64,000 nt of DNA from Camelus ferus (lineage: Eukaryota), in NCBI RefSeq assembly GCF_009834535.1, contig NC_045696.1, forward strand, positions 64,172,001-64,236,000, written 5' to 3'. Every line of letters begins with the position of its first letter. The first letter of the stretch is position 1. This document shows positions 4,709-34,700 of the stretch, piece by piece. Made by a program: the position numbers and the translations under genes. The notes under the pieces are model-generated. The model was given only the letters and a program-made list of their open reading frames with translations. It made no database searches and was not told where the DNA came from.

Positions 4709-4781
4709 CAATCAGTTAAGCTGCACAACCTTGTGGAGGATCACAACAAAGTCCAGGTTACAGTCATTGTAAAAGGCAAAG
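4709..4781 (+). CDS. ATP13A5: ATP13A5 exon (73 nt), [24 protein letters not shown]
   Basis: tttgtag|CAA ... AAAG|gtaagt; phase 0 to 1. Confidence 0.93.
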
Positions 4782-13700: not shown

Positions 13701-16700
13701 TAGGATGCTATGATCAGAGGCATGTAAGATTACTTGCCTTGTGCTTTATTTTTCTCTTAATTTTCTGTTATTTTCAACACATATTTGTGCTCTAAAGTCT
13801 TCTTCTCTCAGCAACTCGTCTTTTCTGGTCATTACCTTTGTCAGCCCCCTTAGCCTTCTCTTCCTTAACCCCATGTGTGAATGGGGAGCTGTACTTACAT
13901 AGGAGCCGCTGGACCACTGACTCCCAAAGCAAGAGAAATCGAGCAGGGCCAAGTGAACACAATTTATTGTTCCTAGCAACCTGTAAGAACAATAAACATA
14001 AATACACTGTTAGGTAACAGCAATGCTGTTTCTGAATTCCATATTCAAGTGATCCTATTAACGAATTCTTAATTCAATGCAAACCTTTTTTTTTTTTTTT
14101 TTTTTTTTTGGTTTTGAGGGAAACTGTATTGAAGGACCTTACTCTACGTATGATTATGTTCATGTAGGTTACAATACAGCCAAAGGGGACTTGGTGAGAT
14201 CCATCCTCTACCCCCGGCCTCTGAACTTCAAATTATACAGTGATGCCTTCAAGTTCATAGTGTTCCTGGCCTGCCTTGGAGTCATGGGTTTTTTCTATGC
14301 CCTTGGTGTATACGTGTACCATGGAGTAAGTACTAGGGGTAAGGCTTTTAATAGCATAGCTTTCTTTCACCACTTGGGTAGTCGTGAGAGTTTACTGCAT
14401 TTGTGGCATTTGTGAGATCCTAGTCCAACCAGCCTCAGAGGAAACACACATGTCTCAAGCCTGATTTGATGGGGAGGATTTAGTCAGTTGTATCAGAGAG
14501 CAGGAAGGATATACTAATTTGAATGAGCAAAATGCAAAGGAAGAAAAGCATTACAGAGGTATTCTGGAACCAGAAAGCAATTAAGAGATGAGTCTAGCAA
14601 AGTAGGAGTAGACCAGATTGAAGGGGACCTTGAATGCCTTGCCTAGAAGTCTGGACTATTGGAGAGTGTTGAAGTATTTGAGTGTGTACATTGTCCATGG
14701 CTTACCCATGGACACACCATGCAGTCAGTGAGTTTCCCTGTGTTCTTGTTAGCTTCTGAGATGAAATTAAATGTCTACTTTTACAGAGCTGTGTACTGTA
14801 TGAATCCCCACTTCCCTTTTTAAATTTCAGGCTTTCCGGTTTTATTTGGATATCTCTCTTAAGAGTTGTGATAGCTGTAGAGGAAAGGGTGGTCACCAAT
14901 GACCTCTGAGGTCCTTTCTGGCCCTGAGAGTCTGATTCTGTTATGAATTGTGTAGTCTCTTCCACAAAACATGCTGGGATCTTAGCAGTGTGGGCTTATC
15001 AGGAGGAATAAAACATTATAAATAAAAAGATCTAAACACAGGTATGAAACTGGGGCTGAGTGACCTATTTTCAATGCCCAACTTAATGACATCAGAGATG
15101 GTATGTGTGCTGAGGAAAGGAGGCAAAAACACAGTCATAAGAATTTCTGGGTAATGTTCATGCTCAAACTTGAGCTCTGGGTAGTCATTTCAACCTGAAA
15201 TAAGCCCTCAGGGAGCATTTTTAAAGGCAAGAAGGGCAGAGGAGGCCAGGGCACACTGGTGATGGTAGAATGGAGCCTGGACAGAGCGAGGCAGAATGTC
15301 AAAGCCAGTGGGGCTGGAATTTGAGGCCAATTTCATCTGGGAAGCAGGAACACTGAGCAGGCTAACCTGCACATCCCTCCCCTCCCTAGGTCTCTCAAAG
15401 AGATACTGCAGCCATGGCCCTGCTCCTTCTGACCGTGACTGTCCCTGCTGTGTTGCCCGCTGCCCTGACCACAGGCATCGTGTACGCACAAAAGAGGATG
15501 AGAAAAAAGAAAATCTTCTGTATCTCCCCGCAGAGAATCAACATGTGTGGACAAATCAACCTCGTGTGCTTTGACAAAGTATGAGCTCAACTTTCCAGGT
15601 TGGAGGTCACCAACTTTCAAGACACAACCGAGTTGGGAAGGGCCTCAGAAACTGTCCAGTCCAGCACCCCCATTTTACAGATGGGAACACTGAGGCCAGA
15701 GAAGGTCACCAAGTGAGCTAGTAGGAGATCATGTTCTAGATCACGCTTCCACTTACCCAAGTCCTAAGGAAGTAGTTTAGCCATCACGTCATGAATTTCT
15801 TCTCCGTGAAATTTAATATTTTTGTGCCTGTTTCAGGTTTCAAAACCATCTCATAATGTCATAACTTTTATGACTAACTGGCTTTTTCTGGCAAAAAATA
15901 TGAGGAACACTTCTGTTCCCTGAAACACTTTGTCCAGAGCTTAAGTGAGCATCTTCCTTTCTCCTCTGCTGCTTCTTTTAAGGAAAAGGAGGGAGTGGAC
16001 CAGGATGCATGTTTACACACTCTGGATCCTCTTTCCTCTTTTGCTTCCCAGGGTATTAGGATTCAGGACTAGGGCAGGTTGTCTGTGCTTAGGGCCTTGG
16101 AAAGGTGGCAGAGGAGAAATGTGTTTGGGGGGTGGGGGGTGGGGGACAGCTGCTGCAGAACAGTCCCGAGACCTCTCCCTGTGGCTTTCCTGTTGGGGAC
16201 CTGGAGGGGATATACAGTGTCTGTCAGCCATCTCAGCTTCCATCCCGCCCTCACCTCAGGCACCCAGTTTACTGGCTCTAATGCAGTGGACCCGACCTGG
16301 TTTCTCCGTGTCTTCAGTTCATTTGCATGCAAATAATTGATAAAGGCTTCGCCACTTTTTGGTTAACCCACCTCGGCAGAGAGCCCCATTCACGAGACAT
16401 TCCTAGCTTTTGAGAAGCTCATGGTCTAGCTGAAGAAGCAGCCAGAAGGGAAGTGTAGACAAAGAAAACGCAGAGAGATGCGTACTGAAAGAGATGAGCC
16501 AAATGTTGGGTGCAGTTACCTGCCACAGGTGGGATGTCCCCTTTGAGCTGTGGCTTTGATTGTCAGACAGAATGGGCCCAGCCTCAGCGGCGAGCAGCTC
16601 AGAAAACAGGGAAGTGAGGGCTGCAGCATGTGGTGACTGGGACCATGGATAGTGAGAATGCAGCTGCTTGGAAGGGATGCAGCTGTTTGGGAGGAGTCAA

Positions 16701-19700: not shown

Positions 19701-22700
19701 TGTCTTACACAGAGATGACTTTAAAGAAAAATAGTGTCACAGACCTGGATGTCAGTGTTAAAAGGATGTTCCCTCGTGCATGGAGATGCTCTGCTCTGCC
19801 TTGATGGTGCTGGGGCAGCTGGGCTACCTCCTTACTCTGGAGCTGGGTGTTAAGCAGGCCTAATGCTATTAGCCTACTGCCTACAGACACCGGGGTCTGT
19901 AATTAGTGATCGACTGTGAGGCAATGAGCAGACGGAAGGTGCTAGGTTAGTCCTCAATTCCATTTTGCTTTCTCTGTTACACTATCTGACAAATACTTGC
20001 CCATAATACAGCAAATCAGATCTCCCAACCATTTTCCTCTTGATCTAACAGTAAACTCACCCATGGGCATTAATTAATAGTTATGTTAGCACTTCATTTC
20101 TCTCTAGAGTCTCAAAGCCCTTTATCAACATTTTGTTTTTGTTATCAATCTGGACAGTCACCATGTCACCCATATTTGTAGGAAATAGGTGTGAACCAGC
20201 TGGCAGACTGTGAATGAAATAGTCTTGAAAAGAAAGACAAAGAAATTTCCAGCTCGGCTTTAGACAGACAGCAGGTGCCAACTGAAAAGTCAAACTCGAG
20301 CTGGTTCTTGTTGGCTTTCTATTCACTGAAACTTTCTCATTTAGCAACAGCAACAGTCACAACAATAAAAAAAAAAAAAAAAAAACCTACATTTTGTAAT
20401 AATTGAGAGCTTGACTCACCTGATTTTCAACATGGTCCTTTGGGAATCATTTGTCACCTCCTCAATCTCTCTTTCAGGCTCTCTTCTCTGATTCAAAATT
20501 AGACGCTTACAAATATTTAATAAGTTAATATTTTATCTACAAAGGGAGCATTACCTCTAAAAATGCTGAATCATTATATTGTGCACCTGTAATTTCATGA
20601 TATTGTATATTAATTATGCTTCAATAAAAATAGAATAGAAAAAATAAAATAAACATTTGATGTAAAAAAAATAAGGGCTTGGGACAATTAGATGTACTTT
20701 AATTTGTTGGGAGCTGGGGTTTTGTGTAAATCATCATATAATTAAAAGCTCTGAATCTTATGCTAAAACCAATGTTAATTTTTTCCAGACTGGTACTCTT
20801 ACGGAAGATGGACTGGACCTCTGGGGGACTGTCCCTACTGCTAACAACTGGTAGGCACTTCAGTGAAGATGGAAATGTGTGATTGGTGGGGCTATTTTGG
20901 TGACATTCTAACCCACCCTTCCAGTGTTGAGGGATGAATCTCACATAAAATATATATAATAATTGGCTGGTACCAGCTCCCCATTAGTCTAACTTGTGAA
21001 ATTAAATGAGTTCTAAGTTCAGAATCAAACAGGGAAAGTAGGTCTTCAAACTTCACATGAAAAATGGAATTGAATACAGTGGATGATTAGGGAGTTGAAT
21101 GAATAAAACAGAGAAGCAAAGAGTGAAATCAAGACTGTGCTTAATTCAAAACTGCACAGACTTCCTGGGTGTCTTGTGAGGTGGGAGATCCAGAGAGGAA
21201 GAAGTCCATCTCCCCCCTCGTGGGGTTCACAGTCTAGTGGGATTGGAGGTGCAGATGCACTCACCTTCAACGTACAGAGGAAAAGTTTGCAGTTATGGCA
21301 TGGAAATCAGAATAGAGGAGAAGACATTATAATGATCGCTTCATCTAAAACAAGTCCTGAGTTTGATATGAAAAGTCCTATGTGATAGAAAACGCAGTCC
21401 TGATTTTTATAACATAGTGGATAAAAGGTAGAGACTAATTTTGAAAATGAATGGAACCAGGAAAACCAATCTGAAGGAGAGAGCACTTGAGAGGTTCTGA
21501 AGGGGATAAGGCTAGAATTTTTACTAATTTGGTTTAAAAGTTGGCACTAGGGAGGGGAGAGGGCAATCACATAGGTGCTCCCCCAGAACAGAGCTAGAGA
21601 CGGGAGGGAGGGCTTGTCTGCAGAGAGGACCCCTGAACTCTCTTCTCTGCGGGGCCGGGACCTGTCTTCTCAGTCCAAGTGGAGAAGCCTCTGCTCTTAA
21701 GTTCTGGGTAGCCCGCCTGGGCTCCAGACAGTGGCCGAGGCTGCTGTCATTGAAGGGGTCATGCAGGGGCCTCCCAGGATGGTGACGGGGCCGGGTGCAG
21801 CACTGGCACAAGGGAACAGCAGTCAGGCAGTGAGACGGAGCAGAAGACACCTGGGCCGGGGGTCGATACACTGCCTGGGCTCTAGCCCTGTCCATGTGCC
21901 ACTGCTCCAGGCTGCTCCAATGCCCAGCTCAGGCCTTTGTCCAGGGCAGCCAGTGGCCAGAGCATTGAAAGGGGAAAGAGAGGTTTGCAATTTCCACCCC
22001 TTCTCTCCCTCCCTTGCCCCTAGTACTCTGAAAGTTTGGGGGAAGTAGAAACAGCTAGACATAGTTATTATTCAGCTTTAAGATGGGAGGATAGAAGTCA
22101 AGCCAAGCCAGTCTACAGTCAAAGAGAGCAGTGAGTTTTAGTTGCTGGATATCCATGCTGGGAGTTTCAGGCAATAGGCACAAAGGCCAAAGGGCCGAGT
22201 AGTGAGAACCATTTCAGAGTCCACGCGTGCTCTGCTTGAAGGAGAAAGGAACCAGCAAGTAGGCTTCCTTCCCATCCTGGTTACCCCATTCACCTGGAGA
22301 CACTTGGCCTGGGTTGTGTGGCTTTCTAGAAGCAGCTCTGCAGTTTGCAGGTGTCAGCTGTGAGCCTTCCCACAATGCGCCTTCCCTCACGACTGCCACC
22401 CCCGGGCTGACTGCCGGTAACCTGGCAAAAGTCCCTGTGACTGTACCCAAGTACTCAGACTTTATCATACAGGGCATGGGGAACGGTGAAAGGTTTTGAG
22501 CACAGCGGTTAGGTTAAGCTTGTGTCAGTAAGATTTAAGGGGAAAGGTGTGCAAAATGAGTTTGTTGAAGATCTTAACTTACTGATTACCTTCCCTACCA
22601 GTTTCCAGGAAGTCCACAGCTTTACCTCAGGCAGGGCTTTGCCGTGGGGCCCTCTGTGTGCAGCCATGGCCAGCTGCCACTCCCTGATCCTCCTGGACGG

Positions 22701-25700
22701 GACCATCCAGGGAGACCCACTGGACCTCAAGATGTTTGAGGGCACTGCCTGGGTAAGGTGACAGTTTCTCAGTTCAACTGAATGAGGAAAACTTAAAGAA
22801 ATACTGAGAGTTTATTTCCTAACTTCGGTTGACACTCAGATTCACAGCAATATACAAATGAAGGTCTGGTCCTACCTGAATTTCCCAACCTCTGCACCAA
22901 GACTTTGTTAATGAGACCAACATGAAATAAGTTTCCATGGTCGAATAAATTTGGGAACCACTGTTTAAACAAGGTTAAGCTGATTTCTTGACTATGGGGA
23001 TTTCGTTAATCTACTGCGGTGCATTGTGAACATTCACCAGGGGCTATGATACGCAGCATTTGCTAAACCTGTTTCACCACAAAAACCTTGACAGGCCAAA
23101 ACATGGTACAAAACACTCTCAGAGACATCCTGGTCTAAAGAAGTACTGATCAATACAGTAGCCACTAGCCACGTGTGGCTACAGAACACATGAAATGTGG
23201 GTATGCAACTGAGGAACTGAATTTTAAATGTTATTATTTAATTAATTGTAATTTAAATTTAAATAGCCACAAGTGGCTCGTAGCGGCTGTGATAGACAGG
23301 AAAGGTCTCGACACCGAAATGGAGGTCCCTCAATCCAGCAGGTTCAGTGTCCTGAGCTGAGTGTGAATGATGTTTGAAGGGTATAAGCCCATTTTGGTGG
23401 CTTTCGTGACGCAGTGGGAAAACCTCTCGACTCCACTACTCTCCAGCTGCGTGACTCCAAATCCAGAATGAAGACTCTGAGTCATTACCTCATCTGTGCA
23501 TTTTGCTAATAACGCCTCATTTATGGAGCATTGAGAGTGTGAACCGAAGAGGCTGCGTGCATTGGAAAGTGCCCAAACAATGGAGGGTATTCATTCATTC
23601 ATTAGTTAGTTAATTAATTACATTGTTCTGTCCTCAAAAAAAAAAAAAAATAAACATGCTCTAAAGCTTCTTACAATGACACTTCAAGTATAGGACAGCA
23701 TTTCAACAAAGTTGTAGAGGAATGAAAACAAATGATTGTAGGGATGTGAAGAACACAAAAAGGCTAATTGAAAGATTTATTGTACAAAAACTGTAGCTTT
23801 CTAGAGGCTAAGGTAATAATAGGAGAAACCTGGTAAATGGGGAAATTTCTGATATCAGTAAGTTAAAATTAAAGACTTTGCTGTGGAGAAGTGTTTGATA
23901 TAAAGACAAAACAGAAATTACTTTCTTGGATCGTAGTGGAGAGGCATCAGTGTAATGATTATAAGCAACGTCCTCACCAGCATCATTGGTGCTGACGCCG
24001 TGGTGAGCTGCACATGGTCATTACTGCTGTATGTGACTTTGATCCTGGTTCCAACAGTGCCCCCTTCTCCATTGGAGGAGGCTTGATCTATCTGTACAAA
24101 TGGCGTACATGTTGGGGTCTCATGCATAATACTATAATATCGATAGTATTAGCTCTGTGAGAACAGTTGTATCCACTCCAAACAAAGCATAAAAGTGTGA
24201 GATTGTTCACTGACTTTAAAGCTGGATGAGAAAGTCTCCAGTTAAATATCTTTGGTAGTTAGGAGCTTTTCACTAAACATAAAGGGGAGGAAAAATGTCC
24301 TTATAGACTCTAAGAATGTTTACTAGCAGGGAGGTCAGAATATTTTTCAGAAGAAAGCGAGATCTCGAGAAATGATACGATGTCCCCAAGGCTGGACAAG
24401 TAAAATGATTGAGCAGAGACCAGATGTTGTCTCCTATTTTCTGACTTCTACTGTTTACATATCTGACTGCTTTTCCCATATTTTAGCTTAATATTGGTTT
24501 CTCAGGTGGTATAACTTATACTGTTGTAACATCCAAAGAATACAAACTATTGTCAAATACGCTTTCTAATCGGCTAACAGCTAACTTGTAACTCTCTAGT
24601 TAGCCAATTAGGCTAGGAGCATAGACAGAGCATAAGAAATAGTTCTGTGCTCATCTCAAGACTCAGTTCTCAGTCATCTGAGAGCTCATGCCCTCAGGTA
24701 CACTGGAGGGTAGATTCCACTTCAACCCTCGTCCATTTACTAGACATGCCTTTTAGGAAGAGCCAGTGGGCTGTCATTAGCATTTCTTCCAGCAATTACT
24801 ACTTAAAATGTGGTCACAATAATTCTGGCTTCTTGACATTTTACAATAAGGTCCGTAATATGAACCAACACAACAGAAATTGGACAAGGATGGTATTAAG
24901 ATAATTGGCCTAGAAGAGAAAATATGTGAAAAGGGCTCTGAAAAGATTAAAGTGTCATGCCAATCAGAGGTAGTTCTTTCTTAGTATTTTTCTCGAAGTG
25001 ATGCTATGAATGTTTTCCTTTTAAAACAGGTAATGGAAGATTGCAATGTGGACTACTGCGAATTTGGGACGTCAGATACAAACATAATAATAAAACCAGG
25101 ACCAAAAGCCAGTCGGGTATGATTTGCTTCTTCAAATTATATAAATATTTCCCCTTAAAACGGGTGAAATGCCCCTGACTTTTATGTATTTTTATATTCC
25201 TGCTATTTTGGCTTATCCTAATGGTGTCCATAGTTGGTTTGCTCATTCTTGATTCCTGGATTTATCCATTAATTGACTCAACAAACATTCACAGGGTACT
25301 TGTGTATGCTCGAGCACTGTGCTAGGTGCTCAGGGATAAAGTGATTTCAAAACGAGACACGTTGGGCTCTGTTGGAGGAAAACGTGGGCTGATGGAAAAA
25401 TTAGTAGAGGTGCAAGTAAATGCAATACGACGTGCCAAGTGCTATAACAAAGGCTGAAGAAAGAACAGCAGGAGTCCAGAGGTGGGAGTGAACTCTGTTT
25501 CTGGGAGAGAAGTACCAGAGGAGGTGCCCTGTGAGCTTGGACTGGAAGATGATTGGGGTTTCTCCAGACAGCCAAGGGGAAGGGTCTTTCAGACCAGACA
25601 GCTTGATGAGGGAATCGCCTTAAACACAGTCAGAAAAATATCAATGCTGTGACAATATACCACTTCATGGTGTCCCTGGGCTCAGTGCAGAGTCAAGCTT

Positions 25701-28700
25701 ATTTGTTGTGTGCATCTGCTGAATCCTACTTAACAGCATCTTAAGCTCCCCTGTCTCGGTGTACTCACAGGGTCCCCGTGGAAGCCATCACCGTCTTGCG
25801 TCAGTTTCCATTTTCCTCCAGCCTGCAGAGGATGTCTGTGGTCGCTCAGCTGGCAGGGGACAGTCACTTCCATGTCTACATGAAAGGTGCCCCCGAGATG
25901 TTGGCCAGGTTCTGCAGACCCGAAACAGGTACTAACGGCCACTTGTCTCTTTCAGGATTTTAAAAGCTCAAACACACAGAGCTAACAAACCTAAATCAAA
26001 TGAATGTGGAGGTGGTTGTTTTCTCAGGAGGTGGGAGGTAGGCCCAGTAGATCTGCAAAGGCAGAGGTGATCATTTCAAAGCAGAGAAGCAGAGAGTACA
26101 TTCCAGGCTATGGTCCAGCCAGAAAAGCCCAACCACAGTGGGGCATCAGGAGCCAGAACAGGAAACAACACGGGGATCAGAGAACCAGGGAGGGTGAGAA
26201 TGAGGAGCATTCAGAGGGAACCAAAGAGACAGGTCTGGACACTGGGATAATTCTGCAGACAGGGGTGCTCCTTCACCCCCTGCGAGGCTCATACCACTTT
26301 GGGAGCCTCAGACAGATCAATGGGAGGAGAATATAAAAAAGATAATTCTTTTAGGGGAAAAAAAGTGATTAGAGTAAATTAGATGCCGTTAGAGCAAGGT
26401 AATTGATCATTTTCACAGCAATTTCATCTTTCTGGGCCAGATTTTGAGTTGATTTGTATTATTTCTTAGTCTTATAAACATATGCAATCTCGAAGCTGCA
26501 GCTCAGATTTATAAGAATATTGTTGCATTCAAATGAGTTCATTTGGATAAAATTGGCCTTTTTCCTCCTGATTTTCATCTATATTCTCCTTACAATTGCT
26601 GATAGCCATCAACTTGTGCACAGAATTCTAGATTTGGCAAATGATTGCTTTAACTTCTCTCTCTACTTGGAATCTTTTTTTAACTTCAGAAGTACCCCTC
26701 TTTTCCTGACTTTGATCTTCCTCGGAGCTCCCATTAACTTCATCCAGATTGATGGTCTACACTTGGCTGCAATTTTTTTCTTTTCAGTCTGTCATTTTCC
26801 ACCTCTTATTCTTCTGGTAGCCTTTCCAGCTCTTCTTCTTGTCCTAACTTCTGATCTTTGACATATGTTAATATCATTTTCAGCGATTTCTTTTTTTCCT
26901 GTATTTAAGAACTAGGGAGCCAAGAGCTTCCTTGAAATTAGATCCCCACCCCTAAAATTATTTAGAATTTCAAAAAGTCTGAACTGAAGGGGGACATAGA
27001 GAAACTCACAACCTCCTCCTATTATGGATGGGTAAATTGAGGCACAGAAGAGAGACATAACATGCCCAAGGTCAGGGAGCTGGTTGGCAGTAGAGGCTAG
27101 AACTCAGGTGGTTTGCTAGCTAAGCCACTACACTTCTCATTATACTGTGCTCCTTTCTAACACTTTTGTAGGCATACATAAACTGTAAAGATTTTATAGA
27201 TATATTAACATTACTTATGATCACCGTGCCAAAAGATACAAATGTTGGCATTGTGTCATCCAGTATATAAAGCCCAGATGGCAAACTTTTATGCAAAGAG
27301 CCAGGTAGTAAATATTTCAGGCTTTGAAGGCTACACCATCTCTGTCTCAACTGCTCAACCTTGCCACTGGAGCCTGAAAGCAGCCCTCAGTAGTAAACAA
27401 ATAGGTATGACTGTGTTCCAGTACAACTTTATTTACCAAAACAAGTAATGGGCTAGATTTGGTCTGTAGTTTGCTGACTCCTGATCTAGAGGATCAATAG
27501 TTTCCATCATTTCATCTGGGTAGGCAGTCCTGAGGTCTGTCTTTACTGAACCCAGGCAGCGCATAGGGCACCCAGCTGCTGAATGACACATCTTTGGCAT
27601 TCATTTCTGATAGAGTAATGATACCTCACTGATGAAGTTGCTGGTGGCCTTTAACTGAAGCTGTAGCTTTTCTATTAAAATATTTTTATAGACTGAAAGT
27701 TAAAACAAGGTAGAGTGACTGCAACTCGGTCTTTTTAGTTTGTTTGTTTGTTTGGGAGGGGGGTTAGGGGGGTGGAGGGAGGCAATTAAGTTTGTTTGTT
27801 TGTTTGTTTGTTTATTATTTTTAATGGAGGTACTGGGGATTGAACCCAGGACCTTGTGCATGCTAAGCACGCTGTCTACCACTGGTCTATACCCTCCCCA
27901 CTAGAGGTGGCTTTTGGAAAGCAGGATTGGGGGTAGTGAGATAAGCATTAGAAAGGGAGATGGAGTCAGCTGGAGGCAGAGCATGGAGTGGACGGAAAGG
28001 ACCAAGGAGAGGGAAACAGGAAGTCTTAGGCTCTGGCACTTTTCAAGGCTGCAGCCAGCCAGGGTCCACGGCTCTCAACATAGATGTAACCCAACGTCAG
28101 TGAGAGAACCGGGCTTTGCCTACAGATTTCTGAATATAATGGCTAGAGCGATGAGAGGTGATGTGGGCTGGGCCAAGTATAGTAAAGCCATATTTTCAGC
28201 CCAAGAAACTGTACAGCATGGTTGAATCTGGGAGGCAATCACACATCTATTTAGTAAGCAATATAATTAATAGTTTGTATGGTCTGGTTATTTTTGAAAC
28301 TATTGGCATTTTAAAAAGTTGGTTTTTTACTTACGTCACCAGCTACTTCCAAGTAGAATTCCAGTGTCTTCGTATATTTGGTCCTTGGGGTGATGCATCA
28401 TTTTGGCCAACAGATAATAGTAACCCTTCCTTTTATTCAGTCATGTAGTACTTTCGAGCTTGAAGTGTGCTTTCAGAGACACTCTCATTCTGGATCAGTT
28501 CGGCAGATGTTTGCCTACCCCTATCATCCCCTACATACTATGTTAGAGATTGGGTAGACAGACACGGAAAAGACTTGGTCCTGCCCTCAAGGATCTCACA
28601 GTCTAACTGCAGACCTATTAGGAAGACAAGGGAATTTCATTCCCACAATAGAGATGAGGAAACTGGAGCTGAAAGATGCTAAAGGATGCATGGTCAGTCA

Positions 28701-31700
28701 GCAGAAAGACAAATATTAGGATCAAGAGCCAGCTCCTAATCCAGTGCCTTTTTTTTTTTTTTTCTTTTCTGTTTTCCCTGTAGACCACAGTGCTATATCT
28801 ACTTCCCTCCACCTCTTCTCTCCTGGACTGTCTCTGGACTGCATCCTAGTCTTGCTTAGAAGTTGAGTCACCTTCGATGTGACCTTCATTTACCTCTCCC
28901 TTCTCTCCTGGCAGTGCCCAAGAATTTCTCACAGGAGCTGAGGAATTACACAATGCAAGGCTTCCGTGTCATTGCCCTTGCCCACAAAAACTTGAAGATG
29001 CAGAAGCTTTCAGAAGTGGAGAGTTTAGCAAGGTAAGGAGCTCAGAAATTGGCACCAGCACAGGTTCTGTGTGCACGAGGTGAATGAGTTCTGGAAGTGC
29101 ATGATGGACAGCTCAAACCCCATGAAGTCTCTTGGAGATGAAAAATCACTCATCGAGCCCCCTGTTTGGAGATGGGCCACACTGGGGAGGACTTGCTCAG
29201 GTCACAGTGCTGGTTGTTGGAGGAACAAGGGTGGCAGTTGAGATCTCCTGACTCCCAGACACCTGTGAGTCATCTCTCCATCATCCCATGAAAAACAACC
29301 GTCCCTCCTTCAACCTGGGACTGTCACATGGCTGACTGATCGGGGGTCCCCGTATAAAGAGATTGAGAGGATACAGCTGGCACTTTGAATGACCTCCAAA
29401 TCCTTCAGACTTGGCTTCTTTCAGGAATCACTAGTACACCTCCCTCAGATCTGGAGAAGCAGTGAGTGCAAACTGCATTCCTTATATGGAATGGCATTCA
29501 GTATTCTTAACTACATTCAGGGATAAACTGCCCACAGTAGTGGATAATCTATAGCTTAGTTTTTCTTTCTTTCTGTCTCAGTTATTAGAGGTTGTTTTTG
29601 AGTTGTTTATGACAAAGGAGTAGAGAAATACTGTGGAAAATTGAATAACAAATCTTATGCGTTCTTTACTTTCATTTTGTGTTGCTGTTAGAGAGATCCT
29701 CACTTACATGCAGTTACTAGCCCCTGTGTATATGATGTGGATATCCTTGGCTCCACATTGCTATTTACAACCTAAGTCCCTCTACTCTAATCGAATCAGT
29801 AATCACCATCCCTTTCTTACAGTGTATCTATTTCCCCCATCTATCAAATGTGGGATTGGATGATTTTGAAGGAGCCTTTCAGCCATGACATTTTAATCTT
29901 CCAAATAGAATCACAAAGCTCATTTTGAAATATATGAATGACACTCCCGGGTTTAACATTCATGGTGTTAGCTATACTTGAGCAACCGTAACACACAGGA
30001 TTTTGTAATTTTTCAAGATACAAATTTTAATAATGGAAGTTAAGGTCATGTGTGAAGAAAAGATTTATGTTGCTAGACATGGAGTGTGGCCACTGTGCAG
30101 CTGCCACATATACAGGCAGCTGTGATGTTCTCATTTAAAAGCCACTAGTGAGATGGACATTATTATAAATATAACAAAATAAGAAAATGAAGATAAATGT
30201 GCTAGATTTTCAAACAACTCAGGTTTTCCCAGAGAATATCAGGATTGATTATGTTTCTTAGAATATAGTTATTAGTTTCAAACAGGGTGAAAGAATAGAG
30301 TTTTGATTTTTTTAGGAATCAAATTATATTTAACAAAGTTTTCCAATGAGAAAAATCAATAACTTCCAAAAGACTGGGGTCAGAAAGGGGAAGTAGAAGA
30401 GTTTCTTGAGAGGACTTAGGGAAAAATCACTTAAAAATTAAAAACAGAAGAAATACCTGATCAAGATTTACCCTTTCATGAGCTTAGCAAATTTCTATTG
30501 AGCTTGACTATGTGTTAGATGTTCATCAAGGCACTGAGGATTCAGAAGTGAATAAAATAAAATCCTTGTCCTCGCAAAGCTTACATCCTAATGGAGGGAA
30601 ATGGGTAACAAAATTAATCTATAAAATATTCTCAGGTAGTGATAAATGTCCTGAAGGAAAGAAATAAAGTAGGTTAAGGGGATTTTTAAATGACAGAAAG
30701 TGCCATTTTCCCCAGGGAGATCAGAGAAGTCCTCCAAGGAGGCAAGGTTTGCACAGAGGTCAGAGTAAAGTGAGGGAGCAAGGCATGCAGATATCCAGGG
30801 GAGGACCATGGCAGGCAGTCATAGTCCATGGGTGCAAAGGCCTTGACACAGGATTTTGCTAGAAAGTTGCAGCGTCCCAAGAGACCCAAGTGCCTGATGC
30901 AGTGAACAAGAGGAGAGTCATAAAACAGAGACCAAAACCAGAATAAATTGGTGAGAAGATTTTTGGATATTTCTTTTAGTTTTAGTTAATGAGAAAACAT
31001 TAATCCAATTTATAATAGAAAGTCATTAATGTAAATGACGGGAATTTAATGAATTCTGTATGAAGGTGGATTTTATAACATTCTCTCAGATCCCTAAGGC
31101 AGGATTTATATCTGATTATCTGAATAATCACCAAAGTGCCTAATATAAGATCGAAAAGTCATGATTTAATGACTGGACTTTTGAACAAAGGATGTAGCCA
31201 CTTGCACTCTCCTCCGGAGAGAGGCTGCTTCATTTTAGTTCTATCCCAGTTGGAATTATTTCTCATCGAGAAATCCAACTCTGATCTTTCTCTTAAAGAA
31301 AGTTAACTGATCACCTGAGTATTTCCCTCCCAAGCCCTCCTAATGTGATAGGAAAAAAAAAAAACCAACAGTATGAAAGAAAACTAGAAAAGCAGTAAGT
31401 TCAGATGAAAGATTTCTACATATTTGTGTACGATGCAAAGTAGGTGGGGAAGAATGGCAGCTGAGTCAGCAGGACAGAAGAAGCTGTAGCCTACACCATG
31501 CCAGAGAGACAGAAAGGTACTGCAGGAGGAAAGTCGGTTTACCTTGCAGCCCCAGAGAGGGTGAGACTCTGACATGTCCTGTACTATGGCAGGTGAAGGT
31601 GAGACTCAGGGCACTGAACAGGGGGGATTAGCTGATAGCAGGTATAAAAGTTAGTTCCCGAGGTCTCCTCCTCCTCCCTCTTCCTCTCCCTGCAATCTTA

Positions 31701-34700
31701 ACTCCACCCTGGACAGAAAAAAGGGACAATGAGGGATCAAGAAAGAGCTCTTGGCCCCCAAATTTACTTTTTAAGAAACACCTGAGATTTATTTTATTCC
31801 AGAGGAGAAGTCCCACATAACTAATATAACCCGGTTAGACTCCAAGCCTCCGATTTCAAATTATGAAAACTCTTCCTTGGATGATGTCATGTATTTACTG
31901 AAGGTTACAGATGGAGGCTGAAGTTAAGTGATTCCACATTCAGCTGTTACTAGAGTATCCTACGTGTAGTCTGTACTTAATAAATTTCTAATAAGCTGAA
32001 ATGCTTACAGGCTCAAAAAATGAAAAAGTATATATGACTAACAAAAAATTTAAAAAACCAACAGAAGAGTTGAAAGATAAACACATTTTTTTTTAAATAG
32101 AATTGAAAACTGGAAAAAGCAGCCAAAAGATATAAAAGTGGTTGCCTCTGGGAAGCAGGAGGGGTGAGGTGTGGTGGAGACAATGACTATTAGTTTTCAT
32201 TACTATAAGCTTTGGGATTCTTTTTAGTTTTTCAAACCTGTACATATATTACATTGATAAAACTTGGACATTTTCAAAAGAAGAAATAGATCCAGCCATT
32301 GAGACTGTATGGATACACTTTAATGTTGTCTTTCTCCCCGAATCCAAAGAGAGAAGGTGGAGTCAGAGTTAACATTTCTGGGACTTCTCATAATGGAGAA
32401 TCGCTTGAAAAAGGAAACCAAACCCGTCTTGAAGGAACTGAGGGAGGCCCGCATCAGGACCGTGATGATCACCGGTATGGGTGGCTGAAGGCCTGACAGG
32501 TTGCCTGTATCCCAGGCATAAGAAAAAGAGCGTGTGAGCTGAGTTTATGTGACTGGGACAGAAAGAAAAATGCTTTGCTGTCAAGTTTGTTACCCTGTGT
32601 TCCAGTTAGCTGGGAACATGTGCCACTCCCCACAGCACGACCGTGAGCTTCAGAGGCAGGACTGGGTCTCACTCTCTTTGTCTGATGCCCACTGCTCCTA
32701 CCCAGGATCTGTGCAGGGCTAGTGGGCTCACAGCAAATGTTGGAAGATGAGATTGGGTTCTGATCAAGAAGCCCAGTGAGACCTCTGTGTAAAGGGTGTG
32801 AGTCTCTGCGGGACTGTCCTCCAGGTCAGTGGGGTAGGCACGGCATGTGATGACCCAACCCAACACGGGCAGCCCTAAGTGCTTTGTGCTCTACTTAACT
32901 GGAATCCAGACCCCAAGAATGGGTTTATGGTATCAGGCCGGGCCCATGTGACCATCACCACTTGAAGCTGTTAGTCTCCTGAGGATTCGTCATAAAGCAC
33001 TTAAATATTTATCTATTCATTTGTGCGTGTTTTAGAAATACGCCACGTTCACAACACGATGCTCTATGGGAGGGAGATGCAGACAGTGCTGGACTACTGT
33101 CTAGGCTTGATCAATGGTTATGGGAAAAGGCAGAAAGCACTGAATGCCCCCCAACAATATGGTCAAGGGCACCAACCATATGGTATGAACACTCAGAGGA
33201 GGGTGAGCTCAGTTCTGGATGCAGAGAGGTTTATACACAAAGCAAGCCCACTGAATTTCTTTGTCATCTAGGGGACAACCTTCAAACAGCCATTACTGTT
33301 GCAAAGAATTCTGAAATGATTCCTCGAGGGAGTCAAGTGATCCTTGTTGAAGCCAATGAACCAGAAGAGTCTGTCCCCGCCTCCGTGACATGGCAGCTGG
33401 TGGAGAACCAAGAAAGGGGACCTGGAAAGAATGTGAGTGAATAATCGAAGGCCCCTTTGTGGCCCTGGGTGGATGGAAAATAGCCCTGACCCTGAGCAGC
33501 CCTCTCTCGGTATTAGAAGTCACCATGGTAAAAGTCCCTCACATCTGGCCAGAGTTTTACAGATTACAAAGATCTAAGCATTTCTACCAGCAGGTCTCAG
33601 TCTTGGCTTCACATAGAAATCACCCGGAGAAGAGTTTTTAAGTGTCCAAAACCAAGACTCTACAGATTCAATCAGAATCTCCAGGCTGGGAGCCAGCGTC
33701 ACTCCCTCCCCCAGTGATTCCAGTGGGCAACGTGACTGAGAGCCGCTCACTAACATCCATTTCACCCCTCTGATCCTCGGTTACCCTACACAGTTCAGCA
33801 AACTATTCATTTTACGAATGAGAACACTGAGGCCTAGAGAGGTAAGCTTGCCCAAGACACACGCTGGTGAGCTGCAGAGCAGGACATTAAATTCGAATCC
33901 ACACCCTCCCCCCGCCATGCCCAGTCCATGGGCATTTGGACCGTACTGTACCCGTGACATGATGTGAACAGATGCTGGGATCGCTAGGTAGCAAGCTTCC
34001 CGGGCACTGACAACAGGACAGCCCTTTCATGTGACGAGAATGAGCTGCAGCCTGACAGTTCATTACTAAATGTAGCTCCTCTACCTTTGTATGAATTCAA
34101 AGAGATGGTCCTCCAGGTGATAAATTACAGAAATGCTCCCTCCCTCCAGGCTGCCCAGCCCTTCAGATTGTTCAGTGTAGAAGAGGCCTTTGTGCAGCAC
34201 ACAAACTGCACAGCTGTACAGAGCAGCCCTGCCCCTACCCTGTGAAGAGGTGCCTTTACTTGGCTCAAATCCATTGTGTGGGCTGTGAAAGGTAACAGCC
34301 AGCGCTCCGCTTTCAGTGGATTCCAGGTTCTGATTTCCTTGCAAACCCACCTGCCTCGGCATCAATGCAAGTTGCCTCAACTTCAGTGCATGATGAAACT
34401 CAGATCCCCGCTAATTTTTAAGAGTCTACTCACACTACCCACTTAGGAGTTTAACGCCTCTACTAAAGGTTTGTCGTTGCCGGGAGAAGTCACATCAGTC
34501 TCAGGCTTTCTCCTCCTCTCTGGTTCCCTCTCACTGTACTTTTTCTCCTCAATTTCCAAGAAAAACATCCAGTCCTTGCCTCAAGGGAACACTTAACAGC
34601 ACATCTTCTGTTGGCTGTTTTACAATGGAAGTTGGAAGGGGATGGGTGTATCACCTAGCCTCCCAATTTAACACATCAAAGCATTTTTTTTTGTTTCAAA

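Follow-up and report, generated by a model that had tools for sequence, protein, structure and literature searches.

An apparent frameshift in camel ATP13A5 is probably a consensus error of one assembly in an otherwise intact gene

In one assembly of the wild camel, Camelus ferus, the reading frame of ATP13A5 is broken by a single surplus base at the start of a coding exon, and the question is whether camels have lost this gene, whether some animals carry a null allele of it, or whether the base was never in the animal. ATP13A5 is a P5B-type ATPase predicted to be a polyamine transporter; the prediction of polyamine transport is made in the part of PMC13691954 that was consulted, and the consulted text of PMC11502228 describes the gene as a marker of central nervous system pericytes in mouse. 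Because autophosphorylation of ATP13A5 went undetected in eight preparations, according to the consulted part of PMC5837089, the activity of the protein is itself unproven.

The stretch of DNA that was analyzed (64 kb; hereafter the window) contains 22 coding exons of the gene on the forward strand, between positions 4709 and 63284 as anchored by tblastn, and these cover residues 248-1133 of a camelid protein of 1219 aa. The top homologue matches are named ATP13A5, and over three control exons the identity to a distinct paralog lying upstream is 54-75%; by these comparisons the gene in the window is the ATP13A5 orthologue and not ATP13A4. All 22 exons are preceded by AG and followed by GT. When the exons were rebuilt from the tblastn anchors, this AG/GT-bounded model summed to 2659 nt, which is 3n+1, and no other break was found in 884 codons. 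The initial annotation had reported the same total and had described the other 21 exons as open with canonical splice sites, and both statements hold.

The extra nucleotide lies at the boundary between the upstream and the affected exon (Table 1). The upstream exon ends in phase 0, and the acceptor that follows, cacag/GGTCCCC GTG GAA GCC, places seven nucleotides ahead of the frame that encodes VEAIT, just as had been noted from the letters of the window. The site consists of short runs, G3 across the acceptor and C4 at 25774-25777. A spacing of 15 residues across the junction is common to 110 of 117 records of at least 300 aa, and in the seven unmatched ones the model omits the upstream exon or puts another in its place; because the spacing is this uniform and its exceptions are explained, the protein alignments indicate that the frame is truly off at 25771 and that this is not a natural length variant.

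Table 1 Features bearing on the ATP13A5 reading frame, in window positions; a slash marks an exon boundary.
Feature	Position	Strand	Description
Upstream exon	25030..25116	+	87 nt; phase 0 to 0; canonical GT donor; end AGT CGG/gtatga
Affected exon	25771..25928	+	158 nt here versus 157 expected; N-domain FPFSS...KGAPE; Pfam PF13246 at residues 595-636
Exon start GGTCCCC	25771..25777	+	7 nt versus the 6 nt (Gly-Pro) implied by other camelid records; contains the single surplus base
Candidate cryptic in-frame acceptor cag/TTT	25805..25928	+	Would skip the lesion and drop 11 residues before FPFSS; weak score
Premature TGA	33312-33314	+	Met in the shifted frame after 147 codons

Read as spliced, the shifted frame continues for 147 sense codons over four exons (25771-25928, 28915-29032, 32350-32474 and 33272-33432) until it meets the premature TGA, which stands 118 nt short of the end of its exon and has 10 further exons downstream of it in the window. 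Nonsense-mediated decay (NMD) is predicted by the established rule of 50-55 nt, and because of this position of the stop the shifted transcript is predicted to be an NMD target. The predicted product would consist of 587 native and 147 foreign residues; it would retain DKTGT (residue 486) and lose FPFSS (599), KGAPE (625), TGDN (720) and GDGAND (850). TM5-10 would presumably be lost as well, following from general P-type topology. The initial annotation had arrived at the same stop, at NMD and at the removal of KGAPE, TGDN and GDGAND, and the rebuilt model agrees with it on each.

Outside the junction, the translation of the window is identical to the Bactrian record P0125 and the dromedary record P0121 at 340 of 340 residues upstream and 544 of 544 downstream; it differs at 2 residues from a second Bactrian record and at 14-15 from alpaca. 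The P-type motifs TGES, DKTGTLT, KGAPE, TGDN and GDGAND were placed in P0125 and are matched by the exons of the window. Camelid ATP13A5 resembles the known protein in its P5-ATPase and E1-E2 domains (Pfam PF12409, PF00122 and PF13246, found in both P0125 and P0003) and is 87% identical to the human record. Constraint was assessed at 711 near-invariant columns in records of 1210-1230 aa (n = 50), where the camelid proteins show 7-8 departures (12 in P0121, whose N-terminus differs) the leave-one-out median for the 44 other full-length records at the same columns being 12.5. These counts argue for the absence of protein-level relaxation or decay in camelid ATP13A5; an old loss would thereby be excluded, and a very young allele would be compatible with them.

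Camelids differ from the known ATP13A5 in TM4, where PAV replaces PPx before LPAAL. At residue 444 (exon 15390-15578), PAV-LPAAL is present in all nine camelid records that cover TM4, and PPx-LPAAL in 101 of 108 non-camelid records, the remaining seven having no match. On this alignment the Pro-to-Ala change (P444A) is camelid-wide, and it falls in a motif that we take to line the substrate path of P5B ATPases.

Two further observations concern other parts of the window. The exon at 22602-22752, in the P/N domain region, differs at only 6 of 150 nt (96% identity) from an exon of the upstream paralog (L002:4575-4724; G000:C1:64085571-64085728), which we take from gene order to be ATP13A4-like. 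Silent changes affect 3 of the 47 codons shared by this exon pair versus 31 of 49 in three neighbouring control exons (Fisher P 2e-9), and the introns that flank the two exons are unrelated, with 30% and 17% ungapped identity. This pattern likely reflects exon-limited gene conversion with the ATP13A4-like paralog, a known process; we found no literature on gene conversion between ATP13A4 and ATP13A5. The intronic stretch at about 27739-28836 (1.1 kb) matches G000:C23:14867958-14869013 at 86%, with further matches to its opening 130 nt at many genomic sites, and is probably a low-copy interspersed repeat.

The state of the junction in other camelids was read from 10 protein records, gathered by homologue search and cluster look-up and labelled dromedary, Bactrian camel, alpaca or wild camel. 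Nine of them, spanning the four species labels, read G-P-V-E-A, although they do not represent nine independent genomes: P0124, P0125 and P0127 are isoforms from a single annotation, P0122 and P0126 are two versions of one accession, and the nine lie on contigs of five different lengths. Seven have KASR-GPVEAIT (dromedary P0121; Bactrian P0123, P0124, P0125 and P0127; alpaca P0122 and P0126), and two automated models that lack the 87-nt exon have TAW-GPVEAIT (dromedary P0001 and wild camel P0002). The initial annotation had pointed to sister sequences with six nucleotides before the GTG as one refuting comparison, and at the protein level this is what the nine records display: the surplus base is absent from the sequences behind them. 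S-P stands at the same place in 103 of 125 matched records, and the alignment indicates that G-P is the camelid state at the junction and S-P that of most other mammals.

The tenth record, P0003, reads V-P-V-E-A (RVPVEA), with Val588 where every other camelid record has Gly, and its listed name carries no low-quality flag. We scanned all junctions with donors from -12 to +29 and acceptors from 25740 to 25789: none of them yields GPVEAIT from the window, and RVPVEAIT can be obtained from it only via non-canonical ends, for example GG-AG or GT-GG. P0003 is not independent of the window, because its contig has the length of the window's own (G000:C1, 122,453,268) and its V-P-V-E-A needs a non-canonical junction, shifted by 1 nt, on the window's own sequence; it would be a model built on that sequence which steps round the surplus base, and not a second allele. 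Protein records may mask frameshifts, as this one does.

Public sequencing runs were approached through a run index, which was queried for 24980-25960 with 94 sampled words and returned 24 runs. Among the DNA-type runs, the 14 best (7 studies, 3 organism codes) each contain 0.94 of the 94 words, and none contains more. The C4 run is covered by 28 of the 951 words of the interval, which gives a probability of about 0.95 that at least one sampled word covers it, about 0.05 that none does, and an expectation of about 2.8 covering words. About 6 sampled words, whose identity the index does not give, are absent from the best runs, versus the 2.8 or so expected from the surplus base (P of at least 6, about 0.05). 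The ceiling of 0.94 hints that the base is private to the window, possibly together with a second private difference nearby, and a private allele would look alike. The RNA runs X15-X20 hold 0.17-0.33 of the words; 0.17 is about the yield of two spliced exons, and these runs were not counted as evidence. Camel host DNA was sought in metagenome contigs by exact 23-base matching, which gave 0 loci. A search for short read-assembled ORFs that would display the intron-exon frame recovered 14 proteins, of which none equals the camel exon and the best reaches 88%, and a search of the genome for a second copy or haplotig of the affected exon returned the window itself as its sole match.

Several explanations can be set against these results. 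Were the loss of ATP13A5 fixed in a camel species or lineage, making the gene a unitary pseudogene, only the lesion itself and the camelid-wide P444A would speak for it; against it stand the intact G-P-V under all four species labels, the lack of a second lesion and the conserved columns, which carry no excess of change. We rejected lineage-wide loss on the nine intact records, all of which would have to hide the same base for it to stand, whereas no junction on the window's sequence gives P0001 or P0002, and regard the chance that it is nevertheless correct as negligible. It is also conceivable that the base is real and that the mRNA stays in frame, through a non-canonical junction shifted by 1 nt, the cryptic acceptor at 25805 or a cryptic donor at 25070. 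The RVPVEA of the unflagged P0003 and the existence of in-frame cryptic sites would agree with this, as would the weakness of the normal acceptor, which scores 2.8 (2.2-17.0 for the 21 others; 1.4 for 25805) on a crude matrix trained on this gene only. On the same matrix, however, the shifted sites score low (acceptor 25772, -7.4; donor 25115, -5.4), and donor 25070 reaches -0.1 versus 4.8-12.1 for true donors. Canonical rescue was considered for both ends and rejected: two of the nine AG sites in 25650-25811 are in frame, of which 25691 meets a stop and 25805 would cost the protein 11 residues, and three of the four frame-restoring GT/GC donors read into a stop, the fourth being the weak 25070. 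Rescue by splicing, which presupposes that the base is real, is thus very improbable. A recent +1 insertion, private or rare, heterozygous or homozygous, is the more serious competitor; it would be an NMD-targeted null allele in a polymorphic pseudogene state. The frameshift and the stop are present exactly as described, and a signal of relaxation is not expected from a very young allele. The consulted part of PMC11576641 reports that loss of function of ATP13A5 is tolerated in humans, in whom p.Gln355Ter (rs74437357) has an allele frequency of 0.01 and a homozygote frequency of 0.001. Both cases place a premature stop in the same gene well upstream of its 3' end; the human variant, a nonsense SNV, is known from population genotyping, whereas the camel lesion is a +1 change in one assembly only.

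Loss elsewhere in mammals would also make such an allele less surprising. A synteny legend in the part of PMC10760033 that was consulted marks atp13a5 as absent from baiji, blue whale and Myotis myotis, at the level of annotation, and the ATP13A5 records of humpback whale (P0117) and dugong (P0092) are flagged low quality. The humpback model, the sole cetacean among the 120 matches listed, is without the exon that follows the one studied here. A real loss of ATP13A5 in cetaceans is possible; the main texts of the cetacean gene-loss papers that our search listed do not name the gene. In the openly accessible literature, searched by title and the opening of the abstract, we found no report of a lesion in camelid ATP13A5. 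Against a real allele in the camel stand the G-P-V of P0002, a second record labelled wild camel, and of all dromedary, Bactrian and alpaca records, the best indexed runs that never exceed 0.94 of the words, and the position of the site within short homopolymer runs. The coding allele is evident in protein records and the null form in this assembly only. We therefore judge a real rare or private insertion to be unlikely, and give a similarly low probability to the proposal that a null allele segregates in a camel population, masked in public annotation by the shifted splice junction.

The explanation that we favor, and hold to be quite probable, is that the surplus base entered this assembly through a consensus error and that ATP13A5 is an intact, constrained gene in camels; the base is real in the sequence, and the animal itself was probably without it. 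Error is preferred to fixed loss because nine of the ten camelid records read G-P-V, and we counted for it that the lesion is single and lies within the G3 and C4 runs. The initial annotation had offered recent or polymorphic inactivation on the one hand and a homopolymer error on the other: the second is now favored, fixed loss is excluded, and a rare or private allele keeps the smaller probability given above. The surplus base would have arisen in consensus calling, by lengthening of the C run from C3 to C4 or by consecutive writing of both bases of a heterozygous SNP beside the run, at position 2 or position 3 of the Gly codon. These three routes appear to fit alike, and protein records do not assign the surplus base to any one of them. 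The annotation behind P0003 would then have bypassed the base via the junction shifted by 1 nt, turning Gly588 into Val.

Homopolymers and indels are named as the chief residual errors of long-read assemblies in the consulted text of PMC12212083. That text also counts against an error, since among the genes with frameshifts in polished HiFi human assemblies about 78% proved to be real variants and frameshifts in human assemblies of top quality are mostly real. Screening for gene loss accepts such mutations only when at least 10 raw reads validate them, according to the consulted part of PMC5865188. The camel case is like the consensus indels treated in these two papers in being a lone frameshift, in short homopolymers, in an otherwise intact gene and absent in sister records; it differs in that PMC12212083 stratifies long homopolymers (>7 bp) and the runs here are short, and in that our call is made at the level of the assembly and of protein records.

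If the base is an error, the outcome is a correction only: Val588 of P0003 would be an artefact of annotation, and the case illustrates how a frameshift can be concealed by a protein model that carries no flag. If instead the allele is real, it would add a further loss of function to a gene with a known human null allele and be no new kind of event: a natural knockout of a transporter without proven activity, beside human p.Gln355Ter and the apparent losses in whales.
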